A program made the position numbers and the translations under genes. This document shows, piece after piece, positions 12,157 through 30,086 of a stretch of 64,000 bases of DNA (its first letter is position 1; every line of letters starts with the position of its first letter). This DNA comes from an uncultured Candidatus Rokubacteria bacterium (GTDB lineage: Bacteria; Methylomirabilota; Methylomirabilia; Rokubacteriales; CSP1-6): contig CAVVEU010000013.1 in the NCBI GenBank assembly GCA_963747235.1, positions 32,001-96,000 on the forward strand. Reading direction: 5' to 3'. A model generated the notes under the pieces. The model was given only the letters and a program-made list of their open reading frames with translations, was not told the DNA's origin and ran no database searches.

Positions 12157-13053
12157 GCGCAGAATCCTCCTGGATCCCCGGTGCCGAGAGCTCCGGGCGA
12201 TCACACTCGACGCCCGGACGCTCTCGCCGCCACGCATTCGACGTGGCAATGGATCGCTGCGGCTCCAGAAGGTATGTGCCGTCCCAGTGCCATCCGTTTG
12301 CATCGACGGTGACCTTCGGCTCATGTGTGAACCCGGTACGTCCCGGTACTCCCTTCCGCGAAGAAGGCGCACAGCCACGTTGTTCGCGACGACACGATGA
12401 TCACCGCCTTGACGGTCGAAGCTGCTCGTGGTGTAGCCGTCGCGTCGGTGAGCACTGGCGTCCGGCCGTTGAGGTAATTGAAGGCATCGGTCGAAAGTAC
12501 GAGTGCCGGGCATGCCGGGCGGAAGCTAGGTACGTTGGCGTACGAACGTTGCAGAATCTGCCGGCAACGTGCCGCGGCGTGACGTCGCAGCGACTCGGGC
12601 GCCATGTCCGGGAAGGCGGTGGATCCATATTGGTGAACGGTCCGCGGATTGCGATGATCCAGCTCGCACGGCGCGCGCAGGATGGTCTCGTGGCCACGAG
12701 GAGAGTCGGCATGCACAGTGGCTCCTCCGACAGCATCGGGGCAGCTGTAAGAGCGCAAGTGCGGATGCCGTTCGAGTCGCATCGTGCCCCCTCCTATCGA
12801 GCACAGTATGAACTCAGGCTAGCTCTCGGACGAGTCCCGAGCGCATCGCTCGAGTCAGCAGTTGCGCAAGACGTGCCACTTGGCAGGGGGCGATGTGAGC
12901 GGGGAATATCGGCAGATACGGCGCGAGCTTACGGCCGGCATGGAGGGGCGACGGTGCGTGACGCGCTGAGGCGGTGCTGGCGGGTCGTCGCTGCTCAAAC
13001 TGTTCGGAAATCTGAGCAGTGACCTGAGCAAGCGGGTACGCGTATCCGCGGCT

Positions 13054-16000
13054 ATGGAAGCACTGGCTGAACTGCTCGGTGAGAGCCCGGCCATCAGCGT
13101 GGTCCGCGGGAAGCTGCGCCAGCTGCTGGAGGGCCAGCCGACCGGGCGGCGCCTCCCCGCAATCCTCATCCAGGGGGAAACCGGCACCGGCAAGGGGCTC
13201 GTCGCCCGGCTCATCCATCGGATGGGGCCGCGGAAGGGCGGCCCCTTTGTAGACATCAACTGCCCAGGGATCCCGGAGACACTGCTCGAGGCCGAGCTGT
13301 TCGGCTTCGAGCGGGGTGCCTTCACCGACGCGCGTCGCGCCAAGCCCGGCCTCCTTCAAACCGCGCACCGGGGCACGCTCTTCCTCGACGAGGTCGGGCC
13401 TGTTGCCCGAATCGGCCCAGGCCAAGCTCCTCACCGTGCATCGAGGAACGTGTCGTCCGCCGCCTCGGCAGCACCCGGCCGGAGGCGATCGACGTCTGCT
13501 TCATCAGCGCCACGAACATCGACCTCCAGGCGGCGCTCCGGGCGCGGCGCTTCCGGGAAGACCTCTATCATCGGCTGGCGGTGATCACATTCGAGTTACC
13601 CCCGCTGCGAGAGCGAGGTCGTGACGTGCTCCTCCTCGCCGAGCGGTTCCTCGACCGCGCCTGCGTCGACTATGGGCTGCCGCCGAAGACGCTGGGCGAG
13701 CAGGCCCAGGCCCGCCTGCTCGCGTATCGCTGGCCCGGCAATGTCCGCGAGCTGGCCAACGTGATGGAGCGTGCCGCGCTCTTCGCCGACGCGCCCGTGG
13801 TCACCGAAGCGATGCTGGAGCCGCTGTCGGCGGAGGGGCTCCACCCAGGGGCCCGGCGCCCAGCGCGAGTGCCGGTGCCGTCACGCCGGAAGAGGCGATG
13901 CGCCAGCATCTCCTGGCGGTGCTGGAGCAGAGCGCGGGGAACATCTCGCACGCCGCGGCCAGGCTGGGCATTGCCCGCAACACGCTCTACGCGCGCCTTG
14001 AGAAGTACGGTGTGCGCAGCCACCATCCTCCTCCCCGCCGCTCCGAGTCCGATCCCCGCGCCGACGGACACACGGATCCAGTGGGAACGCCGCGGGATCA
14101 CGCTGCTCTGCGCCGCCCTCGTCGAGGCGGACGGGGGCGACGAGGCGTCACCTCCGAGCCGGGCCTGGAAGGACGTGATCGACAAGCTGCAGACGTTCGG
14201 CGGCCGCGTAGAGGAAGTGACGCCGACGAGCGTCGTGGCCTCGTTCGGGGTCGATCCGGTGGAGGATGCGCCACGCCGCGCTGCTCATGCCGCGATGGTC
14301 ATTCACAAGAGAGCCGAGCGCGCCGTGAGGACAAGAGCAGGACGCCGGGGGTCAAGATCGGCATCCACGTGGCGCAGGTTCTCGTCGGACGCTCGGCGAG
14401 GCCGGATCGACATCGACGCGGAGGCCGAAGCGCGCGCAGTGGGCGGTGCTCGATCAGCTCCTGCAGACATCGGGACGGGACGAGACGGTGGCGAGTGCGG
14501 CGGCGGCCTCATTCTTGGAGCGCCGGTTCGAGCTCGTGCCGCTCGACGTCGGGGCGCCGAGTGCGGAGCAGCTCTATCGGCTCACGGGGCAGGAACGCCG
14601 GGGGTTGGGCCTGTGGGGTGCGATGACGAAGTTCGTGGGGCGTCGACGACGAGGTCGAGGTCTTACGGGGCCGCGTGGCCGCGGCGGGGAATGGGCAGGG
14701 CCAGCTCGTGGCGGTCGTCGGGGAACCTGGGGTGGGCAAGTCGCGCCTCTTGTGGGAGTTCACCCGCTCGCCGTCACGTTGCCGGCTGGCTCGTGCTGGA
14801 AGCGGGCGCCGTCCCCTACGGCAAGACCACGCCCTATCTCCCCGTGATCGACCTGCTCAAGGCCTACTGCGGGATCGGCGACCGCGATGACCAGCGCGCC
14901 ATCCGCGAGAAGGTCACCGGCAAGCTCCTCTCCCTGGACCCGGCGTTCGAGGTCGCCCTGCCTGCGTTCCTGACCCTGCTCGACCTGCCCGTGGACGACC
15001 GGGCGTGGCAGGCGCTCGACCCGGCCGGGCGGCGGCAGCGTACCCTGGAGGCCGTCAAGCGCCTCCTGCTGCGTGAGAGCCAGGTGCAGCCGGTGGCGCT
15101 CGTGTTCGAGGATCTGCAGTGGATCGACGGCGAGACGCAGGCGGTACTCGGGAGCCTGGCCGAGAGCCTCCCCGGGGTCCGTCTGCTGCTGCTCGGCAGC
15201 TATCGGCCCGAGTATGCTCATGGCTGGGGCAGCCAGGCCTGCTACACGCAGCTCCGGATCGACCCGCTGCCGCGGGAGAGTGCCGAGCGTGCTGCTCGAG
15301 GTACTCGTCGGGAGCGACCCCGGCCTGGACACGCTCAAGCGACTCCTGATCCAGCGAACCGAGGGCAATCCGCTCTTCGTCGAGGAGAGCGTCCGAGCGC
15401 TGGTCGAGACGGGCGCGTTGACGGGCGCGCGAGGCGACTACCGGCTGGCGCGCGACCTGCCCGCGATCCACGTGCCCGGCACGGTGCAGGCCATCTTGAC
15501 CGCGCGCATCGACCGCCTGCCGCCCGAGGAGAAGCGGCTCCTCGAGATTGCCGCGGTCATCGGGAAGGACTTTCCCCTGGCTCTCCTCCTGGCGGTGGCG
15601 GACGAGAACGAGGGGACGATCCGTCGCGGGCTGGGCTCATCTTCAGACGGCCGAGTTCGTCTACGAGACGCGCCTCTTCCCCGATCTCGAGTACACCTTC
15701 AAGCACGCGCTCACCCATGAGGTGGCCTACGGGAGCCTCCTCCACGACCGGCGCCGTGACCTCCACGCCCGGATCGCGGAGACCATGGAGCGCCTCTACG
15801 GTGATCGCCTCGGCGAGCAGACCGAGCGGCTCGCCCATCACGCGGTCCGTGGCGAGGTGTGGGAGAAGGCGGTGCACTATCTCAGGCAGGCCGGACTCAA
15901 GGCGGCCACGCGATCGGCACTGCGCGGAAGCCGCAGGTCTGGTTCGAGCAGGCGCTGGGTGTGCTCGGGGCACTGCCGGAGAGCCCGTCCACGCTGGAGC

Positions 16001-17149
16001 AGGGCTTCGAGATCCGCCTCGAGCTGGGGCCGGTGCTGGTGCAGCTCGGTGAGGACTCGGCGGAGGCTGGACCACGCGCGCGAGGCCGAAACCCTCGCCG
16101 AGCGGTTGAACGACGACTCGCCGCCGCGGCCGAGCCTGACCTTGCCCTGTGCAACGCCCACGCGCTGCTCGGCGAGCCGGACGAGGCGCTGGTGGCCGGC
16201 GCCCGCGCGCTGGAGCTTGCCGAGGCGGCTCGGGGACCTGAGGCTCCGCATCCTGGCCCCGACACTATCTCGCGCAGGCGCATTTCTTCCGGGGCGATTT
16301 CGAGCGGGCGGTCGAGCTGTCCACCGATAGCCTCGCGGCGCTGCCCGCCGACTGGGTCCACGATCCTTTCGGATACAGCCCCATACCGATCGGGGTCTAC
16401 TGTCGCCTCTGGGTGGTCCACAGCCTCGCCGAGCTCGGCCGATTCGCCGAGGCGGCCCCGTACGAGGCGGAGTTGCTCCGGCTCGCCGAGGCCGACTCAG
16501 CATGCGTTCACGCGTCGGGGTGGCCTACGACGCCGCGAGCTGGCTTCACCTCCGGAAGGGTGACTGGGCGACGGCGCACTCGGTGATCGAGCACGGTATC
16601 GCGGCGGTCCGGAAGGGGAGCATTGCCGCCGGACCTTCGCGACCATGGTCGCCGCGTCCGCCTGGGTCCTCGCGCAGCTCGGCGAGGCGAGCGAGGCGCT
16701 GACCCGGCTCCGGGAGGGCGAGCGGCTCCTCGAGTGTCAAGCGGGCGTGGCACGGCGTGCTCATGCCCTACCAGTCGATGGGACGTGCGGCTCTGCTGCT
16801 CGACCGGCTCGACGAGGCGCAGCGTCTGGGGGAACGCGCCGTCACATATTCTCCGTTTCGCCAGAGCGACGAAGCCCATGCGCTGCACCTGCTCGGCGAC
16901 ATCGCGACCCATCCCGACCGATTCGATGCCGAGAGCGGAGAGGCCTACTACCGGAAGGCGCTGGCGCTCGCCGAGCCGCGCGGCATGCGGCCTCTCGTCG
17001 CCCACTGCCACCTCGGCCTCGGCAGGCTCTACGCGCGCACCGGCAAGCGGGAGGCGCAGGAACACCTCACCATCGCGACGAGGATGTACCGGGAGATGGA
17101 CATGTCGTACTGGATCGAGCAGGCGGAGAGCGTGAAAGGCTCCCGCTAG
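13054..17149 (+). CDS. Sigma54-dependent activator (AAA+ and Fis HTH) fused to a degenerate cyclase-like domain, AAA ATPase and TPR repeats (many frameshifts)
   Basis: [52 protein letters not shown]; then [43 protein letters not shown]; ends [20 protein letters not shown]. Confidence 0.85.
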
Positions 17150-18860
17150 CGAGGGCCGAGGTCGCGCTCGGCGTCGGCCAGCAGGCGCGTCGAAGGCCGG
17201 CGGCACCTCGATCGCGCGCCCGACGACGCCGGGGCTGTAGCCCTGGAGCCAGTAGCTGTTGGTCGGGTGGCCGCCGCCGGCCACGACGATCAGGAAGTTG
17301 TCGGGGCTGGCCGTGATCGGCCACGGGTCCAGCGCGAGGCTCTCGCGCGCCACCTTGCTCGTGTCGATCTCGATCCACGCCGGGGCCCCCGCGCGACGGA
17401 GCTGCTCGGCGGGAATGCGCGAGTGCTCCCAGAGGAACTCGCGCATCGAGGCCTTGGTCCAGCCGAGGCCGGCCATGGTCTGGGCGACGATGCCCGGGAT
17501 CATCAGGATGCCCGGGGTGCCGTGCTCGTAGCCGGCGAGGCCGGCCATGTTGGGCACGCGCATGAAGTCGGCCATGCGGTGCATGCCCTGGAGCGCGTCC
17601 TCCTCGGGCGTCTCCTTCTTGGCGCCGCGCCGCCGGATGTTCGTGGCCCCGTTGGCGAAGGCGAGCGAGATGGAATTGCCGCCCGGCGCGAAGCCGTGGC
17701 GCTCGGTGCGCGTGCGGCGCCCAGCCCGCGGGCAGGCTCGCCTCGTCCTCGGCGAAGACCACGTTCGTGTAGCGCAGGCCGCCGTAGTTGGCCATGGTGC
17801 CGATGCCGGGCAGGGCGCCGCCCAGGTTCTGCTGGAGCAGGCGCAGCGCGCGGCCGATGCTGGCGCCCGCCGGCCGCTGCGGATCCGGGCCGAGGCAGCC
17901 GAAGCCCGCGTTCAGCCGGATCTGGGCGCCGATCGGCCCGTTGACGATCACCACCGGGAACGCGCTGCCCGACGCGGCCTGCAGGGTCTCGCTCCCCGAC
18001 TCGGGATCGAGGAAGGCCTCCACCGCGGCCACGAGCACCGGCAGGTACTCGGGTCGGCCGCCCGCCATCGCCAGGGCGATGGCGCACGACTCGATCGTGG
18101 TCACGCCGCCGCGCGGGGGAAAGGTGCCGAGCCGCTGCCGTCGCGGCTGCGCGGCGCCGGTCAGGATCCAGTCCACGCGCTCGCGCGTCGGAGGCCAGAG
18201 CGGCAGGCCGTCGCCCCAGCGGTTGGCGAGCATCAGGTGGTTCGCGCGGGCGAAGGCGTCCTCGACGCTCGCGCCCTCCACGCGGATCATGGGCGCCTCG
18301 CCCGCGGCGTCGCCGCCGAAGGCCGAGCGCCAGCGCGTCAGGCCGTCGTAGAACTCCTGCTTGCGCGCCTCCACCGGGGTGATGTCGCTGCCCGGCAGGA
18401 ACATCTCGATGGGGAAGGTGACCATCGCCGCGTCGGGCGCGAGCCCGAGGCCGGCCACCGCGTTCGTCATGACCCCCACGAAATCCGCGCGGGTCAGCGT
18501 GACCGTCGGGATTCCGTGGGCCTCGAGCCTGGCGGCCGACCGGCCGCACGCCGTCGCGCAGGTCCCTCAGGCGGCGTTGCCGATGATGACGGCGTCGACC
18601 CCGCTCGCCTTCACGAGCGCCGCCGTCTCCTCCGAGCCGATGACCGCGTTGCCCTGGGGGAAGGCGTCGATCGGCAGGACCTCGATGCCCGGGAAGTCCG
18701 CCTCGAGCAGCGACTTGAGCAGCGGCAGCATGCGGTAGGCCTGCCACTGCTCGTTGCTGACGAAGCCGATCCGCTTACCCGCGAGGGCGCCGACGCGCGG
18801 CGCATGGGACTGCTTCACCTCGATGGCGCCGGACGGGTCGTGGAACTCGAGGCTGATCAT
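17146..18860 (-). CDS. UGSC-family (seleno)protein fused to a ~350-aa WGDGLP-x-x-PPT domain; in-frame TGA at 18567-18569 likely Sec
   Basis: ORF 18567..18860 continues in frame past TGA as GNAA-U-GTCATACGRSAARLEAHGIPTVTL into ORF 17067..18479; later indels near 17715 and 17190; ends [12 protein letters not shown]. Confidence 0.85.
18532..18566 (-). promoter_or_regulatory. Candidate bacterial SECIS element
   Basis: 19 nt after the TGA a perfect hairpin GCGGCC-GGTC-GGCCGC with G-first apical loop, 25 nt from the UGA. Confidence 0.65.
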
Positions 18861-18994
18861 CGCGAAGCCGAGTATAGCCCACGGAGCAGGGCTCGCCGGG
18901 GACTCTCGGGCGATTCCCGGGGAGCGGGTCCGGCGCGGCCGGCGCGATCGCGCAGCTCATGGGAGAGTCGCGCGCCCAGGGGGGCACGGCCGCC

Positions 18995-19028
18995 TATTGG
19001 ACGTTCGCCGGTGGGCCAAGGTCCAATA
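18995..19028. promoter_or_regulatory. Inverted pair of AAGGTCCAATA-type motifs (candidate transcription-factor site)
   Basis: TATTGGACGTT-12 bp-AAGGTCCAATA; the same 11-mer recurs at 32998 and 59362. Confidence 0.6.
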
Positions 19029-19097
19029 CGGGGCCCAATTGGGGGCGGCTAGAGTTGTGAGGAGACATCCGAACCGCTCGTCCTTGGAGGTTCATTC

Positions 19098-19580
19098 ATG
19101 CGTGTATTCCTCTTCACTCTGCTCGCACTCGGCCTGGTCGGGCCGGCGTACGCCCAGGTGCATGTCGACATCGGCATCCATCTGCCGCGGCCGCCCCGGC
19201 TCGTCATCGTCCCCGAAGTCCGGTCGGTCCAGTACGTGCCCACCGGTGACGCGAATCTCTTCTTCTACAGCGGCCGGTACTGGGCCTTCGCCAACGGGTC
19301 CTGGCACTCGAGCCGCGGTTACAACGGCCCCTGGGCCATGGTCGGCCGGAACGCGGTGCCGCAATCCGTGCTGCTCGTACCGGTGAACTACTATCGCGCC
19401 CGGCCCGCGAACTGGGGCGGGTGGCAGCGGCAGCATCCGCCGCGCTGGGGCAACGAGTGGGGTCACGAATGGGCCGAAAAGCGCAAGTGGCGCGATCGGG
19501 ATGACGACCACGACCGGGGCCGCGGCCGGGACAATGATCGGCACGACAACCGGCGTGATGGCCGGGGGCCGGGCCGGTAG
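19098..19580 (+). CDS. Secreted Pro/Trp-rich protein (YXWGXW/PXPV-like) with Arg/Asp-rich tail
   Basis: GGAGG RBS, signal peptide ending AYA, QVHVDIGI..PPRLVIVP, NLFFYSGRYW, YNGPW. Confidence 0.8.
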   Translation: MRVFLFTLLALGLVGPAYAQVHVDIGIHLPRPPRLVIVPEVRSVQYVPTGDANLFFYSGRYWAFANGSWHSSRGYNGPWAMVGRNAVPQSVLLVPVNYYRARPANWGGWQRQHPPRWGNEWGHEWAEKRKWRDRDDDHDRGRGRDNDRHDNRRDGRGPGR

Positions 19581-19667
19581 GGCGCGCCTCCGCACGTAAC
19601 GTTAAAAGGTGGCGGTGCCCTCCGCGCTTGACCCGCGTCTCTCGCGTGTGTTAGGTCGGAGGGCACC

Positions 19668-20699
19668 ATGACCATCACGATCTTCGGCGCTGGCGCGATT
19701 GGAGGCACCACGGGGGCCGCCCTGGCCCAGGCAGGGCACGACGTCCTGCTCGTGGACAGCAATGCCCCGCACGTCGAGGCCATCAACGCCCAGGGCCTCA
19801 CCGTGGAGCGGGAGGGCAAGACGACCACCACGCGGGTGCACGCGGTCCTGGCCCGGGAGCTCAGCGAAGGCCTGGACCTGGTCATGCTGGCGGTGAAGAG
19901 CCACCACACGGAGGAGGCGCTCGGCGTCCTGGTGCCCAGGCTGGCGGCGGGTAGCACCGTGGTGTCGCTCCAGAACGGGCTCAGCGAGGAGCAGATCGCC
20001 CGGGCGGTGGGGCCGGCGCGCACGGTCGGCTGCCTGGTGAACTGGGCGGCGGACTGGGTGGCCCCGGGGCGCATCCTTCACGGCGGCCACGGGGCCTTCG
20101 TGCTGGGCGAGCTCGACGGCCGCATCACCCCGCGCGTGCGCGAGCTGGCGGCGCTGCTGAGCGCGGTGGAGCAGACCCCGGTCACCGACAACATCTGGGG
20201 CTACAAGTGGGGCAAGCTCATCTACGGCGCGCTCCTCTTCGGGACCGCGGTGGTGGACGCCCACGTGTACGAAGTGGTGGAGCGGAGCCCCGGGGTGCAG
20301 CAGGCGCTGGTCGGCATCGTGGGCGAGGGGCTGGCGGTGGCCGACAAGGCCGGGGTGCGCGTCGAGCCCTTCGACGAGTTCGATCCCGCCTGGTACCGCG
20401 CCGCGCTGGCCGGCGACACGGGCGCGCGGGCGCGCGCGATGACCGCCATCGCGGAGCACTACCGCGCGCACACGAAGACCAAGACCGGCATCTGGCGTGA
20501 TCTGGCCGTGCGCAAGCGCAAGACCGAGGTGGACGGCCAGCTCGGCATGCTGGCGCGGAAGGGCGAGGCCCTCGGCGTGCCCATGCCGCTCACCCGCCGG
20601 CTCGGCGAGCTGATCCGCGATCTGGAGGACGGCCGGCGCCAGATGGACTGGGCCAACCTCGATCCGCTCGTCGCCCTCGCGGGCGGGGCGCGCGCGTGA
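19668..20699 (+). CDS. Ketopantoate reductase (ApbA/PanE) family oxidoreductase
   Basis: GAGAIGG Rossmann motif, LAVKS, SLQNG, WGKL, RKTEVD. Confidence 0.88.
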   Translation: MTITIFGAGAIGGTTGAALAQAGHDVLLVDSNAPHVEAINAQGLTVEREGKTTTTRVHAVLARELSEGLDLVMLAVKSHHTEEALGVLVPRLAAGSTVVSLQNGLSEEQIARAVGPARTVGCLVNWAADWVAPGRILHGGHGAFVLGELDGRITPRVRELAALLSAVEQTPVTDNIWGYKWGKLIYGALLFGTAVVDAHVYEVVERSPGVQQALVGIVGEGLAVADKAGVRVEPFDEFDPAWYRAALAGDTGARARAMTAIAEHYRAHTKTKTGIWRDLAVRKRKTEVDGQLGMLARKGEALGVPMPLTRRLGELIRDLEDGRRQMDWANLDPLVALAGGARA

Positions 20700-22459
20700 G
20701 GCGCCCGCACTGGGGCTGGCAGGACCCGCTGGAGGCCAAGCTCCTCCCCGCGGTCTCGGCCGACGCGCTCATGGCCCACGCCCGCGTCATCGCCACCTGG
20801 GAGCGCGAGTCGGGCAGCCCGGGTGAGGCGCGCGCCTTCGACTACATCGAGAGCTGTCTCAAGGGCTATGGCCTCGAGGTGGAGCGGCGCGAGATCGAGG
20901 CCTACATCTCGCTGCCGCTCGAGTCCCACGTGCTCCTGCCCGACGGCACCGTGATCGGGGCGCTGACGCACTCGTTCTCGACCTCCACCGGACCGGACGG
21001 CCTCGAGGCGGAGCTCGTGGACGGCGGCGACGGCACGGTAGAGGCGCTGGCGCGCGCGGGAGCGCGAGGGAAGCTGGCCCTGGTGGACAACTTCGCCACC
21101 CCCGCGAAGGCGTGGGCCGCGCAGGAGGCGGGCACGCTGGGCCAGCTCTTCACGAACCTGGACCACCTGCACAACATGATCGTCACCACGATCTGGGGCA
21201 CGCCCAGCCCGGAGACCGCGTGGCGCATCCCGAAGCTCCCGTGTAGCTCGATCAAGAAGGTGGACGCCGACCGCCTGCGCGCGCGGCTTCAGGCCGGCCC
21301 GCTGCGCGTGCGGCTCGTCACCCGCGTGCGTACCGAATGGATGCCGATCCCGCATCTCACCGGACACCTGGCCGGGGCCGCGGACGCCTTCACCCTCTTC
21401 TCCGGCCACGTGGATGCCTGGCATCACGGCGCCATGGACAACGGCAGCGCCAACGCCACCATGCTCGAGGTTGCGCGGCTGCTGGGTGAGCATCGCGGGC
21501 GCCTGCGCCGGGGCCTGCGCCTGGCCTTCTGGTCCGGCCACTCGCACGGGCGCTACGCGGGCTCGGCGTGGTACGCGGATCACACGTGGCGCGAGCTCGA
21601 GCGTAACGGCGTGCTGCACCTCAACGTGGATTCGACCGGCGCGAAGGGCGCGACCGACTTCACCGTCTTCCACGCCACCGAGGACGCGGCGGACTTCGCG
21701 GAGGCGGTGGTGGCCGACGTGACCGGGCAGCGGGGCCGGGCGCGACACTTCTCGCGCGCGGGGGACCAGTCCTTCTGGGGCATCGGGCTGCCCAGCGCGT
21801 TCATGTCCATGTCGCAGCTCCCGCCGCAGGACACGGAGTTCGGCCGGACCACCGAGCGGCTCTTCGGCACCTCCGGCTTCCCCTGGTGGTGGCACACGCG
21901 TGAAGACACCATCGACAAGCTCGACGGCGCCGTGCTGGCTCACGACACCAAGGTCTTCGTGGCCTCCGCGCTGCGCCTCTGCAACGCGCCGGTGCTGCCG
22001 CTCGGACCGGCCCGCGCCGCGCGCGCGGTGGCGGACACCGCCGCCGAGCTGCACGCCGCGGCGGCCGGGCGCATGGATCTGGCGCCGCTGGTGGACGCCG
22101 CCCGCGGGCTCGCCGCGTCGCTCGACGCCGCGGCCCCGGGGCTCGCGCGCCTGGCCGCCGGCGACGGGGCCGACACCGCGGCCGCCAACCGGCTGCTCAT
22201 GCGCCTTTCGCGCGCGCTGGTGCCGCTGCTCTTCACCGGCGGCGACCGCTTCACCCATGACCTGGCCGTCGGCATCCCGCCGCTGGCCGGGTTGCAGCGC
22301 GCCCGGGAGCTGCCCGGCATGGACGCCGCCGCCGACCTCACCAAGTTCTCGCTCGCCGCGCTGGGGCGCGAGCGCAACCGTGCGCACCACGCCCTCGACG
22401 TGGCCTCCGACCTCGCCGCCGAGCTCGGCTCCCGCGTCCCACAAGGAGAGATTCGATGA
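20696..22459 (+). CDS. M28-family metallopeptidase with PA domain
   Basis: RESGSPGE, GHVDAW..GAMDNGS, HLNVDS, GDQSF, WWWHTREDTIDK. Confidence 0.82.
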   Translation: MRRPHWGWQDPLEAKLLPAVSADALMAHARVIATWERESGSPGEARAFDYIESCLKGYGLEVERREIEAYISLPLESHVLLPDGTVIGALTHSFSTSTGPDGLEAELVDGGDGTVEALARAGARGKLALVDNFATPAKAWAAQEAGTLGQLFTNLDHLHNMIVTTIWGTPSPETAWRIPKLPCSSIKKVDADRLRARLQAGPLRVRLVTRVRTEWMPIPHLTGHLAGAADAFTLFSGHVDAWHHGAMDNGSANATMLEVARLLGEHRGRLRRGLRLAFWSGHSHGRYAGSAWYADHTWRELERNGVLHLNVDSTGAKGATDFTVFHATEDAADFAEAVVADVTGQRGRARHFSRAGDQSFWGIGLPSAFMSMSQLPPQDTEFGRTTERLFGTSGFPWWWHTREDTIDKLDGAVLAHDTKVFVASALRLCNAPVLPLGPARAARAVADTAAELHAAAAGRMDLAPLVDAARGLAASLDAAAPGLARLAAGDGADTAAANRLLMRLSRALVPLLFTGGDRFTHDLAVGIPPLAGLQRARELPGMDAAADLTKFSLAALGRERNRAHHALDVASDLAAELGSRVPQGEIR

Positions 22460-24048
22460 CGCGATTCCGGAACGCGCTGCTCGCCCTCATCGCCGTCGCG
22501 GTCGCCGCAGGGCTCCTGGCTCCCGCCGGCCCGGCCGAGGCCCAGAAGCGGGGCGGCACCCTCACCATCGTGCGCCCCACCGATCCCGTCTCGCTGGACC
22601 CGAACCTCGAGACCACCGCGCCCGGCGCGTGGGTGTACTTCAACATGCTCGAAGGGCTCCTGACGCTCGACACCAAGATGCAGGTCCAGCCCTCGCTGGC
22701 CACCTCCTACGAGGTGATGTCGCCCACGCGGGTGCGCTTCAAGCTGCGCCCCAACGTGAAGTTCCACGACGGCACGCCGCTGAACGCGGCCGCGGTGAAG
22801 TTCACCTATGACCGCGCCCTCAAGGGCACGCCGCCCGCCCGCTGGGCCAGCCTCGCCGGCTCGCTCGAGGGGGCCGAGGTGGTGGACAACCTCACGGTGG
22901 ACATCGTCACCCGGGAGCCGTACGGCCCGGTGCTCCGCACGCTCGCCATGTACTGCATGGGCATCGTGTCGCCCACCGCGGTGGGCAAGCTGGGCGCCGA
23001 CTTCAGCCGGGCGCCGGTGGGCACGGGGCCGTTCAAGTTCGTCGAGTGGAAGACCAATACCCACGTGATCATCGAGCGCTTCCCGGACTACTGGGGCGAC
23101 AAGGCCCTGCTCGACCGCGTGATCTTCAAGGTGGTGCCGGAAGAAGGCGCCCGGATGATCGCGCTCCAGACCGGGGACGCGGACATGGTGCTGTTCCCGT
23201 CGCCGGCGCAGCTTCCCGCCCTGAGGAAGGACGCGAAGTTCACCGTGCACGAGACCACCGGCATCCGCGTCGTCTTCGCGGGCTTCCACGCGGGCATGCC
23301 GCCGCTGGACGACGTGCGGGTGCGCCAGGCCCTGCTGCACGCGGTGGACCGGAAGGCCATCGTCGAGAACATCATGGAAGGCTCGGCGGGCCCGGCGATG
23401 GGCGTGCTCGCGCCCGGGGTGTTCGGCTACAAGGACATGCAGCTCGACAAGCTCTACCCGTTCGATCGCGCGAAGGCCAAGGCGCTGCTCGCCCAGGCGG
23501 GCTGGACGCCGGGGGCCGACGGCATCCTCCAGAAGGGCGGCCAGCGTCTCTCGCTCTCCTGGCTCGCCGCGCGCGGCCGCTACCCCAAGGACGGCGAGAT
23601 CACCGAGGCCATCCAGGCCATGTTCAAGGACGTCGGGGTCGAGGCCAAGGTGCAGGTGCTCGAGTGGGGAGCGGTGTTCACCCAGTTCCGCGGCAACCCG
23701 CTCAACCATCACATGTTCACGCTGGGCTGGGTCACCTCCAACGCCGACGCGGACTACTCCCTGTACGCGCTCTTCCACAGCAAGCAGGTGCCGCCCGCGG
23801 GCTGGAATACCTCGCGCTACGCAAACCCCCGGGTGGACACGCTGGTGGAGCAGGCGCGCCGCAGCCTGAACCAGTCGGAGCGCGAGAAGCTCTACTTCGA
23901 GGTGCAGGACATCCTGGCCAAGGAGATGGTGTGGATCCCGGTCTACACGACGAAGGAGATCATCGCGGCCCGGGGCAACGTCAAGGGCTTCACCATCCAC
24001 CCGGTGGAGTACAACCTCTGGCTGGGTAAGGTCTGGCTCGACAAGTAG
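22456..24048 (+). CDS. Peptide/glutathione-type ABC substrate-binding protein (DppA/GsiB-like)
   Basis: SLDP, LRPNVKFHDG, PVGTGPFKF, VRVRQAL motifs; signal peptide. Confidence 0.95.
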   Translation: MTRFRNALLALIAVAVAAGLLAPAGPAEAQKRGGTLTIVRPTDPVSLDPNLETTAPGAWVYFNMLEGLLTLDTKMQVQPSLATSYEVMSPTRVRFKLRPNVKFHDGTPLNAAAVKFTYDRALKGTPPARWASLAGSLEGAEVVDNLTVDIVTREPYGPVLRTLAMYCMGIVSPTAVGKLGADFSRAPVGTGPFKFVEWKTNTHVIIERFPDYWGDKALLDRVIFKVVPEEGARMIALQTGDADMVLFPSPAQLPALRKDAKFTVHETTGIRVVFAGFHAGMPPLDDVRVRQALLHAVDRKAIVENIMEGSAGPAMGVLAPGVFGYKDMQLDKLYPFDRAKAKALLAQAGWTPGADGILQKGGQRLSLSWLAARGRYPKDGEITEAIQAMFKDVGVEAKVQVLEWGAVFTQFRGNPLNHHMFTLGWVTSNADADYSLYALFHSKQVPPAGWNTSRYANPRVDTLVEQARRSLNQSEREKLYFEVQDILAKEMVWIPVYTTKEIIAARGNVKGFTIHPVEYNLWLGKVWLDK

Positions 24049-24058
24049 CCCCGTCGCG

Positions 24059-24982
24059 ATGCTGACGTTCCTGGTCCGGCGCCTGATGCTGGCGGTGCCG
24101 GTGTTGCTGGGCGTCGTCTTCGTGGTCATGCTCACCGTGGAGCTGATTCCGGGCGACGCGGTGGCCCTGATGCTGGGCGAGCACGCCACGCCGGAGGCGG
24201 TGGCCAAGCTCCGGGACTACCTCGGGCTCGACAAGCCCATGGTGGTCCGCTACGTGGAGTACGTCGGCCGCGTGGTGCGGGGCGATCTCGGGCGGTCCAT
24301 CCAGCAGAACCGGCCCGTGGTGGACGAGCTGCGCGACGTCTGGCCCGCCACGCTCGAGCTCACGGTGGCGGCGCTCGTGATCGCCGCGGTGATGGGCGTG
24401 CTCGCGGGCCTCGTCTCCGCGGTGTGGCCGACGTCGTGGTTCGACACGGTGGCCCGCATCGGGTCGCTGTTCGGGCTCTCCATGCCCGTGTTCTGGACCG
24501 GCCTGGTCCTCATCGTGGTGTTCGCCTTCTGGCTGTCCTGGTTTCCGGTGGGCGGCACCGGCGGCTTCTCGCATCTGGTGCTGCCCGCGGTGACGCTGGC
24601 GCTGCCCTCGGTGGCCATGGTCGCGCGCATGACGCGCTCGAGCGTGCTGGACGTGCTCCGCGAGGACTACGTGCGCACCGCGCGGGCCAAGGGGGTGGCC
24701 GAGCGGCTCGTGGTGTCCAAGCACGCGCTCCGCAACGCGGCCATCCCCATCCTCACGCTGCTCGGCCTCCAGGCCGGGCAGCTCATGGGCGGCGCGGTGC
24801 TGACCGAGACGGTGTTCGCGTGGCCGGGGCTCGGGCGGCTCATGGTCAAGGCCATCTTCGCCCGCGACTACGTGCTGGTGCAGGGGGCGGTGCTGGTGTT
24901 CGCGGTGGCCTTCGTCGCCATCAACCTCGCGGTGGATCTGGCCTACGGGGCGCTCGATCCGCGCGTGTCGCGGCAGGGCTAG
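24059..24982 (+). CDS. Peptide ABC transporter permease (DppB-like)
   Basis: GDLGRS, SMPVFW, EDYVRTARAKG, ETVFAWPGLG, LDPRV. Confidence 0.95.
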   Translation: MLTFLVRRLMLAVPVLLGVVFVVMLTVELIPGDAVALMLGEHATPEAVAKLRDYLGLDKPMVVRYVEYVGRVVRGDLGRSIQQNRPVVDELRDVWPATLELTVAALVIAAVMGVLAGLVSAVWPTSWFDTVARIGSLFGLSMPVFWTGLVLIVVFAFWLSWFPVGGTGGFSHLVLPAVTLALPSVAMVARMTRSSVLDVLREDYVRTARAKGVAERLVVSKHALRNAAIPILTLLGLQAGQLMGGAVLTETVFAWPGLGRLMVKAIFARDYVLVQGAVLVFAVAFVAINLAVDLAYGALDPRVSRQG

Positions 24983-24985
24983 GCG

Positions 24986-25882
24986 ATGGCCATGTCCGCG
25001 GTGGGCGCGCTCGAGGGCCCGGCGGTTGCCGCCGTCGAGACGGGACGGCTCAGCGCGTGGGGCCAGTTCCGGCGCAACCGCCTCGCGGTGGCGGGGCTCG
25101 CGATCGTGGCCCTGCTCCTCATCGCGGCCCTGGGCGCGCCGTGGCTCTCGCCCTTCGATCCCGCCAAGCAGAGCCTGATCGAGAAGCGCGCGAAGCCGGG
25201 CGGGAAGTTCGTCCTGGGCGCGGACGAGTTCGGGCGCGACATCCTCTCGCGGGTGATCTACGGCAGTCGCGTCGCGCTGATCGTGAGCGTGCTGTCGGTG
25301 GCGGTGGCGCTGTCGCTCGGGCTCACGCTCGGCTGCCTGGCCGGGTTCCTCGGCGGCTGGACCGACGCGCTGGTGATGCGGGCCACCGAGGTGCTGCTGG
25401 CCTTTCCGTATCTCCTGCTCGCGATCGCGGTGGTGTCCGCGCTCGGCCCCGGCGTCGTCAACACCACCCTCGCGGTGGGCATCTGGGGCGCCCCCACCGT
25501 GATCCGCGTGGTGCGCGGCGCGGTGCTGGTGGCGCGCGAGACCGAGTACGTGAGCGCGGCGCGGGCGCTGGGCGCCACCGCGCTGCAGGTGCTGACGCGC
25601 CACGTGCTGCGCAACGTGCTGCCGACCGTGATCGTGTACTCCACCCTCTTCATGGCGAACGCGATCCTGGTGGAGGCCGCGCTGTCCTTCCTGGGTCTCG
25701 GTGTCCAGCCGCCCACGCCCTCGTGGGGGCTCATGGTCTCGACCGGGCGCGATCTCCTCCTGGTGGCCCCGCACGTGGCGACGATCCCGGGCCTGGCGAT
25801 CCTGGTCGCGGTGCTGGGCTTCAATCTCCTGGGCGACGGGCTGCGCGACGCGCTCGACCCGCGCCTGCGCGGGCGCATCTGA
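24986..25882 (+). CDS. Peptide ABC transporter permease (DppC-like)
   Basis: LGADEFGRDILSRVIYG, EYVSAARALG, LSFLGLG..PPTPSWG, GDGLRDALDPR. Confidence 0.95.
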   Translation: MAMSAVGALEGPAVAAVETGRLSAWGQFRRNRLAVAGLAIVALLLIAALGAPWLSPFDPAKQSLIEKRAKPGGKFVLGADEFGRDILSRVIYGSRVALIVSVLSVAVALSLGLTLGCLAGFLGGWTDALVMRATEVLLAFPYLLLAIAVVSALGPGVVNTTLAVGIWGAPTVIRVVRGAVLVARETEYVSAARALGATALQVLTRHVLRNVLPTVIVYSTLFMANAILVEAALSFLGLGVQPPTPSWGLMVSTGRDLLLVAPHVATIPGLAILVAVLGFNLLGDGLRDALDPRLRGRI

Positions 25883-26658
25883 TGCGCCTCGACGGCCGGA
25901 CCGCCATCGTCACCGGCGCCGCCAACGGCATCGGCCGCGCCATCTGCCTGGGCCTGGCGGCCGAGGGCGCGGCCGTCTGGGGCTGCGACGTGCTCGGCCC
26001 CGAGCTCGAGGAGACCCGCCGCGCGGTGGACGCGGCGGGGGTGCGCCCGGGCGGCGCGGCGGTAGTCGACGTGCGCGACGTTGCCGCGGTCGCGGCGTTC
26101 GTGGCGCGCGTGGAGGCGGAGGCCGGGCACGTGGACGTGCTCGTCAACACCGCGGGCGGCGTGGCGGGCCAGGTCAACAAGCCGGTCGAGGAGGTGTCGG
26201 ACGCCGACTGGCGGGTGATCTTCGCGATCAACCTGGACGGGGCCTTCCACTTCACGCGTGCGGTGGCCCCCGCCATGAAGCGCGCCGGCCGCGGCGCCAT
26301 CGTCAACATCTCCTCCGGTGCCGGTCGCTCCTACAGCCTCACCGGCATCCAGGCCTACGCCAGCGCCAAGGCGGGGCTCATCGGCTTCACCCGCCAGACC
26401 GCGCGCGAGCTGGGCGCCCACGGCATCCGGGTCAACTGCGTGGCGCCGGGCTTCGTGCGCTCCAATCCCGCCTCCGAGCGGCAGTGGCACGCCATGGGCG
26501 AGGCCGGCCAGCAGCGGCTGGTGGACTCCATCGCGCTGCGCCGCATCGGCACGCCCGAGGACATCGCCCGCGCCGTCCTCTTCTTCTGCGGCGACGACTC
26601 GGGCTATGTCACCGGCCAGACCATCAGCGTTGACGGGGGGATGTGGATGCTGGGCTGA
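25882..26658 (+). CDS. Short-chain dehydrogenase/reductase
   Basis: ATG overlapping the dppC stop; TGAANGIG, YASAK, RVNCVAPG, VDGG. Confidence 0.93.
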   Translation: MRLDGRTAIVTGAANGIGRAICLGLAAEGAAVWGCDVLGPELEETRRAVDAAGVRPGGAAVVDVRDVAAVAAFVARVEAEAGHVDVLVNTAGGVAGQVNKPVEEVSDADWRVIFAINLDGAFHFTRAVAPAMKRAGRGAIVNISSGAGRSYSLTGIQAYASAKAGLIGFTRQTARELGAHGIRVNCVAPGFVRSNPASERQWHAMGEAGQQRLVDSIALRRIGTPEDIARAVLFFCGDDSGYVTGQTISVDGGMWMLG

Positions 26659-26672
26659 GGATCGGGTCCAGG

Positions 26673-27164
26673 CTACTTGTTGCGGCGAATGCGCCGGACG
26701 CTGACCACCACGAAGACGAGCAGGAATGCCCACATCAGCACCGCGCCGATCCCGAAGACGGCGCGTCCCACGGTCTCGTCGCCCGGGCCGCGGCCGACGA
26801 AGGGGAGCGCCACGGTGAAGGCCCGGGGACCCGGCCCGAACGCGACCCAGGTGGCGACCGCCCCGAGCGCGCTGATGATCCCGAGCCCGAGCAGGTACTG
26901 GGTCACGCGCACCCAGCGCGGCGTGCCCGCCGGCAGGTCGCCATCCGGCCCGACGCCGCCCGCCACCGCGTAGCCCACGATCATCGCGGCGCCGGCGAGC
27001 ACGAACGCGAGGCCGGCGGCGGCGACCACCCAGCGGGGCGCCTCGCGCGAGGCCTCGGCGCCGGGGATGATGCCCACGGCCAGGAGCACGATCAGGACGC
27101 CCATCCCGCTGACGGCCGTGCCGAGGGCCACCGCGGCTCTCGGCGAGAGCGGTGTCGCGCTCAC
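26673..27164 (-). CDS. Hypothetical membrane protein (about 4 TM segments)
   Basis: GTG overlaps the stop of the upstream oxygenase; four hydrophobic stretches in ORF 26673..27377. Confidence 0.75.
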   Translation of the reverse strand: MSATPLSPRAAVALGTAVSGMGVLIVLLAVGIIPGAEASREAPRWVVAAAGLAFVLAGAAMIVGYAVAGGVGPDGDLPAGTPRWVRVTQYLLGLGIISALGAVATWVAFGPGPRAFTVALPFVGRGPGDETVGRAVFGIGAVLMWAFLLVFVVVSVRRIRRNK

Positions 27165-28147
27165 CCGGCCCGGGCGGCGGTGAATCCGGTCTTGGCGTAC
27201 TTCACGTCGCGGTACTCGCCGGAGAGTACCGGCGCGTGCCGGGGGGCGCCCTGCGAGGGCAGGCACTCGATGAGGGCGTCGTAGTTGGGGTGGTTGAAGA
27301 AGGCGATGGACAGGCGCGCGGCGCCGGTCGCGCTCGAGGCCGGTGGGTTCACCACGCGGTGGAGATTCGAGAGCCATCGGTCATTGGTCCAGCGCATGAG
27401 CAGGTCGCCGATGTTCACCACGAAGGTGGTGGGCGAGGTCGGCACGTCCACCCAGCGTCCGTCGCGCGTCCGCACCTGCAGGCCGCCGGGGACGTCCTCG
27501 CCACTCAGGATCGTGAAGCCGCCGTAGTCGGTGTGGGCGCTGGCGCGGAGCTGGCCGGGCTCGGGCGGGACGGCCTGGGCCGGGTAGTAGTTGAGCCGCA
27601 TGGTGCCGATGGAGCGATCCACCTTGTCGTCGAAGAAACCTTCCTCGACGTCGAGGGCGAGCGCGGCAAGGCGCATGAGTGAGACGATGAGCCCGCTCAT
27701 CGCACGGTAGTACGTCGTCGCCGCGCGCTCGATGCCCGCCGGTGCGGCCGGCCACAGATTCGGCTCGAAGTGGCGGCGGCCCCGCGCGCCCGTGTAATAG
27801 GCGTCGCCGGAGACGTCCACGGGGCCCACGTGGAAGAACTCCTTCAGATCGGGCGGCGCGGGCGCGTCGTTGGCGGAGGCGAGCGTCTCGCCCGCCACCG
27901 GGTGATAGCCGCGGTTGGTGCCCGGGACGGGATGCCGCGCGGCGAGCTTGGCCGCGAGCGGCAGCGCGAAGAACGCGTGGGCGCGCCCGCGGAGATCCTC
28001 CACCAGGCTGTCGGGGATGCCGTGGCCGGTGATGGCGAAGAAGCCGATCTCGCGGCAGGCGGCGTCGATCGTGCTGGCGATCGCCAGGCGGGCCGCGCGA
28101 TCGCCCCCGCGCGCGGATCCGAGATCGATGACCGGGACGGTGGCCAT
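27161..28147 (-). CDS. Isopenicillin N synthase-family 2OG-Fe(II) oxygenase
   Basis: VPVIDL, GFF..GHGI, RLNYYP, HTDYG, VNIGD, HRV, RLSIAFF. Confidence 0.95.
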   Translation of the reverse strand: MATVPVIDLGSARGGDRAARLAIASTIDAACREIGFFAITGHGIPDSLVEDLRGRAHAFFALPLAAKLAARHPVPGTNRGYHPVAGETLASANDAPAPPDLKEFFHVGPVDVSGDAYYTGARGRRHFEPNLWPAAPAGIERAATTYYRAMSGLIVSLMRLAALALDVEEGFFDDKVDRSIGTMRLNYYPAQAVPPEPGQLRASAHTDYGGFTILSGEDVPGGLQVRTRDGRWVDVPTSPTTFVVNIGDLLMRWTNDRWLSNLHRVVNPPASSATGAARLSIAFFNHPNYDALIECLPSQGAPRHAPVLSGEYRDVKYAKTGFTAARAG

Positions 28148-28150
28148 CGC

Positions 28151-28921
28151 CTAGAGCGTGGAGAACACCGAGCCGCCGTCCACGATGAGGGTCTGCCCGC
28201 TCATGAAGGCGCTGTCGTCGGAGGCCAGGAAGACCACCGTGCCCAGGACGTCGTCGGGGAAGGCGTCGCGCTTGAGCGACCGCGCCTGCATGATCGCGGC
28301 TTCCTGGAAGGCCGTGATGTCGGGGTTGGCCTGCACGGTGTCGCTCAGGATGAGCCCCGGCGCCACCGCGTTGACCGTGATCCGGTCCGGCCCCAGCTCG
28401 CGGGCCAGCGCGCGGGTCATGGCCACCACCGCGCCCTTCGACGTCACGTAGTGCATGAGCAGGGCGGTGCCCTTGGCCACGATGGCGGAGGCCACGTTGA
28501 CGATGCGCCCGCCACCCTGCGCGCGCATGGCGGGGACCACCGCGCGGGCGCAGTTCCAGACCCCCTTGACGTTCACCGCCATCACGCGGTCCCACTCCGC
28601 CTCCGGGATCTCGTCGAAGGGCTGCGGCTTGAGCGTGGCGAAGACGGCCGCGTTGTTGACGAGCACGTCGATGCGGCCGAAGCGGGCCAGCGCGGCCTCG
28701 ATCATGGCACCGACGGAGCCCGCGTCGCTCACGTCGGTGCGCACCCCGAGCGCGCGCCCGGCGGCGTCGAGCTTGTCCACCGCGGCGACGGGATCGGCGA
28801 TGTCGGCCACCACCACGCGCGCGCCCTCGGCGAGAAAGCGCGTCGCGTAGGCGAAGCCGATGCCCGCCGCGCCGCCCGTGATCACCGCGATTTTGTCGTG
28901 AAGCCGGCCCTGAAGGCGCAT
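28151..28921 (-). CDS. Short-chain dehydrogenase/reductase
   Basis: TGGAAGIG, NNAA, YVTSK, VNAVAPG. Confidence 0.95.
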   Translation of the reverse strand: MRLQGRLHDKIAVITGGAAGIGFAYATRFLAEGARVVVADIADPVAAVDKLDAAGRALGVRTDVSDAGSVGAMIEAALARFGRIDVLVNNAAVFATLKPQPFDEIPEAEWDRVMAVNVKGVWNCARAVVPAMRAQGGGRIVNVASAIVAKGTALLMHYVTSKGAVVAMTRALARELGPDRITVNAVAPGLILSDTVQANPDITAFQEAAIMQARSLKRDAFPDDVLGTVVFLASDDSAFMSGQTLIVDGGSVFSTL

Positions 28922-28930
28922 CGTGGCGCG

Positions 28931-28959
28931 AGCATAGACGACGCTCGCGGAGGGGTCAA
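28931..28959 (-). promoter_or_regulatory. Sigma70-type promoter of the SDR-oxygenase operon, probably leaderless
   Basis: TTGACC-17 bp-TATGCT, 9 nt before ATG 28921, no SD sequence. Confidence 0.7.
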
Positions 28960-28970
28960 GGTGACGCGGG

Positions 28971-30086
28971 TTAATCCTCCAGGAGCACGCAGTGGCGCGG
29001 CTCGACGATCAGGAACACCGTCTCGCCCTCGGCCACCGGGTCCGTCGCGACCTCGCGGATCACGAGCGAGCGGCCGCTCCAGTCCACGTGGTACTGGGTG
29101 AAGTCGCCCTGGAACACGCGGCGCCGCACGGTGGCGGGCCACACGTTCAGCGCGCCCGCCGGCCGCTCGCGCGAGAGCCGCACGTGGACGGTCCGCACCG
29201 AGAGCAGCGCTTCCGTCCCCACGCGGCGGCCGAAGGCGGTGCCGTGGACGATGTCGCCGGCGGGCGTTTCCAGGGCCACGAGGCCGTCGCGCTCGAGATC
29301 GGGCCGGTGGCGGCCCCGGATCAGATTGGCCGAGCCCACGAAGTCGGCGACGAAGGTGTTGCGGGGCAGATCGTAGATCTCGTTGGGGGTGCCCATCTGC
29401 TCGATCACCCCGTCGCGCATGACCACGATGCGGTCGGAGATGGCCAGCGCCTCCTCGAGATCGTGGGTCACGTAGACCGACGTGATGTCGAGCCGGTGCT
29501 GGAGCTCCTTGATCTCGAGCCGCATCTCGGCGCGCAGCTTGGCGTCGAGGTTGCTGAGCGGCTCGTCGAAGAGGAGCACCGAGGGCGAGAACACGAAGGC
29601 GCGGGCGAGGGCCACCCGTTGCTGCTGGCCACCGGAGAGCTTCGACGCGCTCCGGGCGGCCAGCTCGCCCATCTGCACCAGCTCGAGTGCGCCGCGCACC
29701 CGCTCCGCGATCTCGGCGGCGGGCAGCTTGCGCACGCGGAGCCCGTAGGCCACGTTGTCGAACACGGTCATGTGGGGCCAGATCGCGTAGGACTGGAACA
29801 CCATGGACAGCCCGCGCTTCTCGGGCGGCACCTGGACGCGCGGCGACGTGGCGAAAACCGGGCTGCCGTCGATACGGATCTCGCCGGACTCGGGCTGCTC
29901 GAGCCCGGCGATGGCCCTGAGCGTGGTGGTCTTGCCGCAGCCCGACGGTCCCAGCAGCGTGAGGTGCTCGCCCGCCGCGACGGTGAAGGAGACCCCGCGC
30001 ACCGCCGGGACTTTGCCGTAGCGGACGACCAGGTCGCGCACCTCGATGGAGGCCTTGCGGCCCGAGCCCACCCGGGGCGCGCTCAC
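28971..30086 (-). CDS. ABC transporter ATP-binding protein (FbpC/PotA class)
   Basis: [34 protein letters not shown]-terminal TOBE. Confidence 0.95.

Follow-up and report, generated by a model that had tools for sequence, protein, structure and literature searches.

A probable UGSC-family selenoprotein gene concealed by an in-frame UGA and two frame breaks in a Rokubacteria genome

We analyzed a 64,000-nt stretch of DNA from an uncultured Candidatus Rokubacteria bacterium (GenBank assembly GCA_963747235.1, contig CAVVEU010000013.1, positions 32,001 to 96,000 of the forward strand; hereafter the window) and found at 17146..18860, on the minus strand, what is likely a real, hidden selenoprotein gene. 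In this explanation, taken as a whole, an in-frame UGA is decoded as selenocysteine (Sec), the encoded protein belongs to the UGSC family, and two frame breaks in the gene are artefacts. The gene itself adds one member to a selenoprotein family that has been known since 2007-2008. The added value of the comparisons reported here lies in the covariation of the putative selenocysteine insertion sequence (SECIS), the link to the GrdB and PrdB proteins, and the alternative reductase fusions of the C-terminal domain. The features concerned are as follows.

17146..18860, minus strand: whole gene, probable UGSC-family selenoprotein; 570 codons plus stop after discounting two extra bases
18860..18858, minus strand: start codon ATG
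18408..18842, minus strand: UGSC domain, PF24696 match (residues 17-161 of the read-through translation P0001; 74 bits, cut-off 25)
18468..18632, minus strand: Sec module with strand, U-G-x-C, helix, and GIPTV strand (residues 77-131), aligned by hhalign to GrdB/PrdB
18569..18567, minus strand: in-frame TGA, predicted Sec residue 98 and first residue of U-G-T-C; Cys in homologues
18531..18549, minus strand: SECIS-like hairpin with closing pair G18549-C18531, bulged U18548, stem 18547..18542 / 18537..18532, and loop GGUC at 18541..18538
17146..18368, minus strand: C-terminal "WxDGxP" domain of about 400 amino acids (aa), spread over three frames (18368..17711, 17709..17190, and 17188..17146)
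17708..17710: first extra base, placement alignment-dependent, absent from 7/7 aligned orthologues
17187..17189: second extra base, absent from 7/7 aligned orthologues
17148..17146, minus strand: stop codon TAG

The initial annotation had described a 97-aa open reading frame (ORF) that ends in GNAA-TGA while its frame runs on through U-G-T-C, and the ORF list and translation bear this out. ORF 18567..18860(-) encodes 97 aa (18860..18570) with the C-terminal end ...AVIIGNAA, followed by TGA. Past this codon the same frame stays open (GTCATACGRSAA...GIPTV), and the read-through (GTCATACGRSAARLEAHGIPTV, beginning with the letters GTCATACGRSAARLEAHGIPTVTLTR...) joins ORF 17067..18479(-). The accompanying claim of one protein of about 570 aa over 17146..18860 stands in part: the gene does hold 570 codons once the two extra bases are left out, but the two frame breaks had been overlooked. 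The interval measures 1715 nt, which is not divisible by three. Past about residue 390 of P0001, the TGA frame yields Arg/Pro-rich nonsense; the true protein resumes in a second frame from about 17709 (...TERHGFAPGGNSISLAFANG...), and a third frame, from about 17188, carries the protein end up to the TAG.

Comparison with relatives points firmly to Sec at the UGA. In an alignment of 93 full-length relatives and five shortened ones, the UGA column is Cys in all 93 full-length rows (CG[SAG]C), and the position three residues further on is likewise Cys in 93/93. Orthologues of the window gene (79-94% identity) were found by six-frame searches in 13 related genomes, with one TGA each, and 14/14 genes, that of the window included, show the motif ...GNAA-TGA-G[ST]C...; the window reads U-G-T-C where the orthologues read U-G-[ST]-C. 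Among 80 species-representative loci, the motif could be located in 75, with TGA in 68 and TGC in seven, so that the Sec form is the commoner one. The Sec-form records bear the labels Betaproteobacteria/Burkholderiales and Rokubacteria/Methylomirabilota; other labels, among them Gammaproteobacteria, Deltaproteobacteria, and Desulfobacteraceae, are each represented by a single locus. The PF24696 match extends across the UGA.

The genome also carries the Sec machinery to which the initial annotation had pointed: selA (578 bits), selB (365), selD (228), and the selC product tRNA-Sec (69) all score above their cut-offs. The genes for SelA, SelB, and tRNA-Sec share one contig; selD lies elsewhere. 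The selD match (C27:46033-46945) is broken into two pieces that overlap, and that of a further selD-like gene (C8:303114-303868) into three; these breaks may be assembly frame errors. In the same genome, 9/9 UGSC domains have an in-frame TGA, and the UGSC family is found in none of 14 control genomes. Finally, the Sec codon is covered by near-identical short-read contigs of other sequencing runs, which represent relatives; one 168-nt piece shows 0 differences, and none of the differences listed between these contigs and the window falls on the codon.

A second cysteine lies close to the Sec site. Seven residues past Sec, Cys occurs in 66/68 Sec forms; at the same position the 93 Cys-form database proteins have Leu (63), Cys (29), or Val (1), and 7/7 Cys-form species representatives have Leu. 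These counts indicate that Sec use tends to accompany U-x-x-C-x-x-x-C.

The initial annotation had also read a GC-rich hairpin with a GGTC loop, 25 nt past the UGA, as a SECIS element, and both the hairpin and this reading hold up. After the UGA there are 19 nt, then GCGGCC, the GGUC loop, and GGCCGC, with a core energy of -12.5 kcal/mol. The bulged U under the upper stem recalls the SECIS of fdhF, although the sequence is unlike that of Escherichia coli fdhF. In the bacterial SECIS consensus model, as summarized in a 2026 review (PMC13188914, section 5), the loop is 3-9 nt with a G in its first two positions, the upper stem 4-16 bp, the UGA-to-loop distance 16-37 nt, and the energy -7.5 kcal/mol or lower. 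The window hairpin lies within every one of these ranges (4-nt loop starting GG, 6-bp stem, 25-nt spacing, and the energy given above).

The DNA is so GC-rich that shuffled sequences fold equally well, and the stability of the hairpin is therefore no proof by itself; its weight comes from comparison with other genomes. We compared 66 nt from the UGA onward in 82 Sec forms (73 distinct sequences). The five core stem pairs hardly vary; one of them changes from G-C to G-U in 10 sequences. The closing pair, below the bulged U, is formed by the wobble sites of two four-fold-degenerate Ala codons; over the 73 distinct sequences it is AU in 29, GC in 18, UG in 16, CG in 4, and unpaired in 6, counts that overstate the number of events since kin among the Sec forms are not independent. 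Its covariation score is 0.197 vs. 0.071 in shuffles (0/500 as high), and registers slid by 1-3 columns score 0.010-0.036. Wobble positions in the stem have an entropy of 0-0.18 bits vs. about 1-1.8 bits at most other scored third-codon positions; three further third-codon positions outside the stem are also low (0-0.7 bits). Paired cells number 447/511 in Sec forms vs. 20/42 in six distinct Cys forms. Two Sec forms with a different peptide (L118 and L131) have a shifted 7-bp hairpin with a GGGC loop, and as read from the printed sequences these two hairpins differ by a compensatory change. Hairpins of their own, at a similar distance past the UGA, are also found in paralogues at 33-35% identity. 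Even allowing for kinship, four pair types at two synonymous sites appear hard to explain without a constraint on the RNA.

Membership in the UGSC family, a known selenoprotein family as the initial annotation had stated, is supported by the PF24696 score. A UGSC-containing protein appears in a 2007 list of selenoproteins as one of unknown function (PMC1976440). The GOS selenoproteome of 2008 (PMC2398784), in the parts dealing with this family, counts UGSC among the most abundant families and as commoner in non-marine samples, and also describes a "UGSC/Unknown_1" fusion. One read marked "#UGSC-containing" in supplement file 1 of that paper runs from ...GMGC-U-GSCTPAV... into ...WTDGLPIVPPT...AGCRPEY...AENED..., which is the two-domain arrangement of the paralogues in our analysis. 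"Unknown_1" may therefore correspond to the C-terminal domain of the window gene, an equation that is based on that single read. Passages on the family in reviews of 2022 and 2026 still give its function as unknown.

Among the best 120 database relatives, 105 are fusions of 563-621 aa with PF24696, 12 are calls of 439-456 aa that lack the N-terminal domain (88-95% identical), and three are fragments. One 573-aa Cys homologue, the Variovorax protein P0105, has the UniRef name "UGSC family (seleno)protein." The 439-456-aa calls are Sec forms cut by the gene caller, and this agrees with the earlier expectation that gene callers would split such genes. The fusion to a WGDGLP domain noted in the initial annotation is likewise present; its novelty is not, for with 105/120 relatives fused and the GOS read in print since 2008, the arrangement is the norm of the subfamily and neither new nor special to the window. 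The window gene shares with the UGSC family the U-G-[ST]-C motif, the alternation of Sec and Cys at one column, the PF24696 match, and the C-terminal motifs of the GOS read. It differs in scoring below the cut-off of the NCBIfam model for the UGSC equivalog (NF041046), and in that we found a link to GrdB/PrdB and, in a Pfam scan of 45 members, no thioredoxin-family match on the UGSC module. As for annotation practice, the lesson is that callers cut at the UGA in 12 of the 120 best relatives, and that such a UGA is carried by every UGSC gene of this genome.

Several points weigh against the explanation proposed above. The decoding of the UGA as Sec is a prediction from sequence. The selD match falls in two pieces. 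The NF041046 score is 47.1 bits vs. a cut-off of 125, which leads us to regard the window gene as a member of a divergent, fused subfamily and not as an equivalog of the short form. The 73-nt fold does not differ from shuffles (z = 0.18; 111/200 shuffles fold as well), the upper stem barely varies, and two-sided covariation is confined to one pair. Lastly, the sequencing runs used below for the frame breaks show relatives that are without the extra bases, not that the window strain is without them.

The frame breaks raise the question of whether the window copy is a true pseudogene, that is, a former UGSC selenoprotein gene inactivated by two frameshifting insertions. A DNA alignment with seven orthologous loci places exactly two single extra bases in the window gene, at about 17710 and 17189, and none of the seven has either. 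Such insertions would be expected of a pseudogene; the neighbouring regulator gene is also broken, and the eight other UGSC genes of the genome could compensate for a loss. However, the regulator gene (13.0-17.1 kb) has about 22 single-base insertions at 13.0-16.7 kb relative to two homologous loci (84-85% identity), and the sequence immediately upstream of the UGSC gene holds another three. The bases inserted in the regulator gene are of all four kinds and stand outside homopolymers, and this large gene is read in many frames. Changes at 13.0-18.9 kb are thus nearly all random single-base insertions, a signature of error and not of decay. The shifted segments of the UGSC gene are free of stops and other damage and still match the orthologues closely. 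Moreover, those parts of 19.6-32 kb that align to a related genome (G015, 870 contigs) contain no uncompensated single-base indel.

Contigs assembled from related populations point in the same direction. The first extra base (17708-17710) is omitted in contigs of all four runs compared (three DNA runs and RNA run X15); the second (17187-17189) is omitted in contigs of DNA runs X1, X2, and X3, whereas those of X15 omit none there (depth 10.6). None of these runs is the source sample, and they hold at most 0.49 of the sampled words, so that they represent relatives and not the source strain. The contigs of X15 do cover the gene, and we draw no evidence of transcription from them. A check of assembly quality through rpoB and rpoC, in a search of the genome minus 16,000 bases, gave a partial rpoB match and no rpoC. 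Because the two breaks sit in a stretch full of like insertions, we read them as assembly errors: the consensus at 13.0-18.9 kb is most likely locally poor and the gene intact in the organism, which leaves inactivation by frameshift an unlikely account.

Two side observations concern the surrounding sequence quality. The roughly 6 kb at 13000-18890 of the window contain roughly 27 random single-base insertions relative to homologous loci and look locally unpolished. Against window 19622-29055, another related genome (G013, about 30 contigs; its locus L136 is on contig C19) has about a dozen single-base indels. They are missing from G015 and are therefore attributed to frame errors of G013 itself.

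It is much less likely still that the TGA is a genuine stop that separates two genes, one for a 97-aa protein and the other for a downstream protein initiated at an internal Met or Val. Gene callers make exactly such a split in close relatives, with products of 439-456 aa, and stand-alone proteins with the C-terminal domain do exist. Against this, a Cys codon replaces the TGA in seven species representatives, all 93 full-length homologues have Cys, conservation continues unbroken across the site, a Pfam domain bridges it, the hairpin covaries, and all nine UGSC domains of the genome share the in-frame TGA. Programmed ribosomal frameshifting, to which two same-direction shifts in one gene might be ascribed, is highly improbable given that 0/7 aligned orthologues have shifts, that the sites are not slippery sequences, and that about 22 like insertions occur in the neighbouring gene.

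Returning to the protein of the probable selenoprotein gene, we found that its Sec module is related to that of selenoprotein B of the glycine/sarcosine/betaine reductases (GrdB, GrdH) and of D-proline reductase (PrdB). The first indications were weak matches to NCBIfam GrdH (E 0.009) and to Pfam Gly_reductase, the latter in 11/45 members at E 0.06-0.4 and always at residues 77-125. Eight GRDB-family (PF07355) genes from related genomes (L154-L161) have, in 8/8 cases, a TGA directly after the Pfam match, in the context ...GVDAVILTST-U-GTSTRCGAAIARELEAAGLPTV..., with about 90 more codons past it. The Pfam model ends just before the Sec, and for this reason the search for the GRDB family reported no internal stops. 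When a 19-sequence UGSC alignment was compared by hhalign with these eight sequences, the probability was 95.95% (E 5e-9, 54 columns, 41% identity), with Sec placed on Sec. In the reverse direction, 3/4 GRDB proteins match PF24696 (E 0.015-0.023). We conclude from these alignments that the Sec modules of UGSC and GrdB/PrdB are homologous.

The modules of the window protein and of GrdB, GrdH, and PrdB have in common a strand ending ...GVDAV(I/L)..., U-G-x-(C), a helix, and a G(I/L)P(T/V)V strand. The N-terminal GRDB domain of about 345 aa is absent from the window protein, which has no PF07355 match, and the order of domains differs. We also considered the C-terminal domain as a circularly permuted GRDB N-terminal domain and rejected this (hhalign probability 0.08%). 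Papers on UGSC, including the 2008 GOS paper, guess at a thioredoxin-like fold in the passages that treat the family; in 45 members we found no thioredoxin-family Pfam match on the UGSC module at E <= 1. A limited literature search returned no published link between UGSC and GrdB/PrdB, and we make no claim that the link is unpublished.

The C-terminal domain has no Pfam or NCBIfam family. No credible relative emerged among solved structures, the best match being a 63-aa spore protein at E 0.045, and in the protein atlas only its own unnamed or auto-named clusters were found, with no named lead. It is nevertheless widespread: a profile search found 7159 cluster representatives at E <= 0.001, 4779 at <= 1e-10, and 2099 at <= 1e-30. 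The best 150 of these comprise stand-alone proteins of about 340-380 aa, proteins of about 415-470 aa (in many cases probably truncated at a UGA), UGSC fusions of about 540-580 aa, and tandem duplicates of about 700-740 aa. A Pfam scan of twenty of these 150 revealed further architectures. Three of the twenty (P0160, P0163, and P0241) have UGSC on the C-terminal side of the domain and are cut at the Sec position; in the window gene UGSC is on the N-terminal side. One (P0245) is fused to a pyridine-nucleotide-disulphide oxidoreductase and one (P0214) to a ferredoxin:thioredoxin-reductase beta-like domain.

The flavoprotein fusion is recurrent, with 27 clusters of 539-733 aa in which 97-100% of the junction is covered, on contigs of up to 3 Mb. 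Several of these clusters are named "thioredoxin reductase (NADPH)" by their source, and the CAVC motif is kept. Compared with this P0245 type (JGI "thioredoxin reductase (NADPH)"), the window protein has the same core of about 350 aa and the same invariant residues. The redox modules differ, that of the P0245 type being a FAD/NAD(P)H enzyme with CAVC, similar to low-molecular-weight thioredoxin reductase, and not a Sec module. All architectures share the invariant residues DG.P, MAG, G, GR..L..N, and AE, together with a few Gly/Pro. The Cys residues in ESC and FGC were candidates for a redox centre of the C-terminal domain; we rejected them, since neither paralogues nor other architectures conserve them.

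The alternative reductase fusions and the homology of the module together suggest a redox relay, and from them we infer the following scheme. SelB and tRNA-Sec would decode the UGA at 18569..18567 under the guidance of the hairpin, which starts 18 nt further downstream. The resulting U-G-T-C centre (Sec98/Cys101) would stand where a helix begins, within a small alpha/beta module covalently joined to the C-terminal domain of about 400 aa, and its selenol/thiol pair may cycle between a reduced state and a selenenylsulfide. The reaction of PrdB involves attack of Sec on the substrate and resolution of the selenoether so formed by a neighbouring Cys. The Sec centre of the window protein might similarly act on a substrate bound by the C-terminal domain, either by reducing it or by nucleophilic attack; direct action on this substrate is proposed because that domain has no conserved Cys. 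The C-terminal domain would then form a core that is either catalytic or substrate-binding, and an exchangeable module of the disulphide-reductase type, attached to this core, would serve it.

Three points count against such a relay. No Cys of the C-terminal domain is invariant across architectures, there are no informative conserved neighbours, and the proposal is based on domain fusions and one module homology only. As a broader and tentative idea, which we consider possible and rather doubtful, UGSC could be a detached Sec module of the GrdB/PrdB type, and the C-terminal domain could be the catalytic part in a large, undescribed family of enzymes, receiving electrons from interchangeable attached modules (Sec-UGSC, thioredoxin-reductase-like, and ferredoxin:thioredoxin-reductase-like). 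If this were true, abundant selenoproteins of soil and freshwater would be small-molecule reductases that use selenol chemistry, like the proline and glycine reductases, but in aerobic bacteria. In any case, the homology to GrdB/PrdB and the recurrent replacement of UGSC by a thioredoxin-reductase-type module on the C-terminal domain make the question of function more testable.

For the gene neighbourhood, TctC-type binding proteins occur near the UGSC-fusion gene in 33/75 loci, and a four-rhodanese protein lies directly downstream on the same strand in 11 related Burkholderiales loci (e.g., L097:5482-7317); neither count is independent across kin. Neither neighbour is present in the window, where the gene looks monocistronic. 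Upstream of the gene, a segment of about 735 nt (18887-19622) includes ORF 19098..19580(+), which encodes 160 aa with a signal-like N-terminus and an Arg/Asp-rich tail. This segment is absent at this spot in the close relatives G013 and G015; copies at 65-72% identity occur elsewhere in 14/20 genomes of the genus, and the genome under study has two more. It forms the exact border between the insertion-rich and the clean stretches.

The eight further UGSC genes of the genome, each with one in-frame TGA, have the following contig coordinates.

C8:271193-271702, further UGSC gene
C8:277027-277536, further UGSC gene
C19:8600-9103, further UGSC gene
C24:626741-627244, further UGSC gene
C33:156946-157440, further UGSC gene
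C33:207833-208333, further UGSC gene
C40:391256-391759, further UGSC gene
C14:220771-221244, further UGSC gene

Some of these genes are fused and others are apparently stand-alone, as judged solely from open frames of about 170-180 aa, and two of them are located 6 kb apart.

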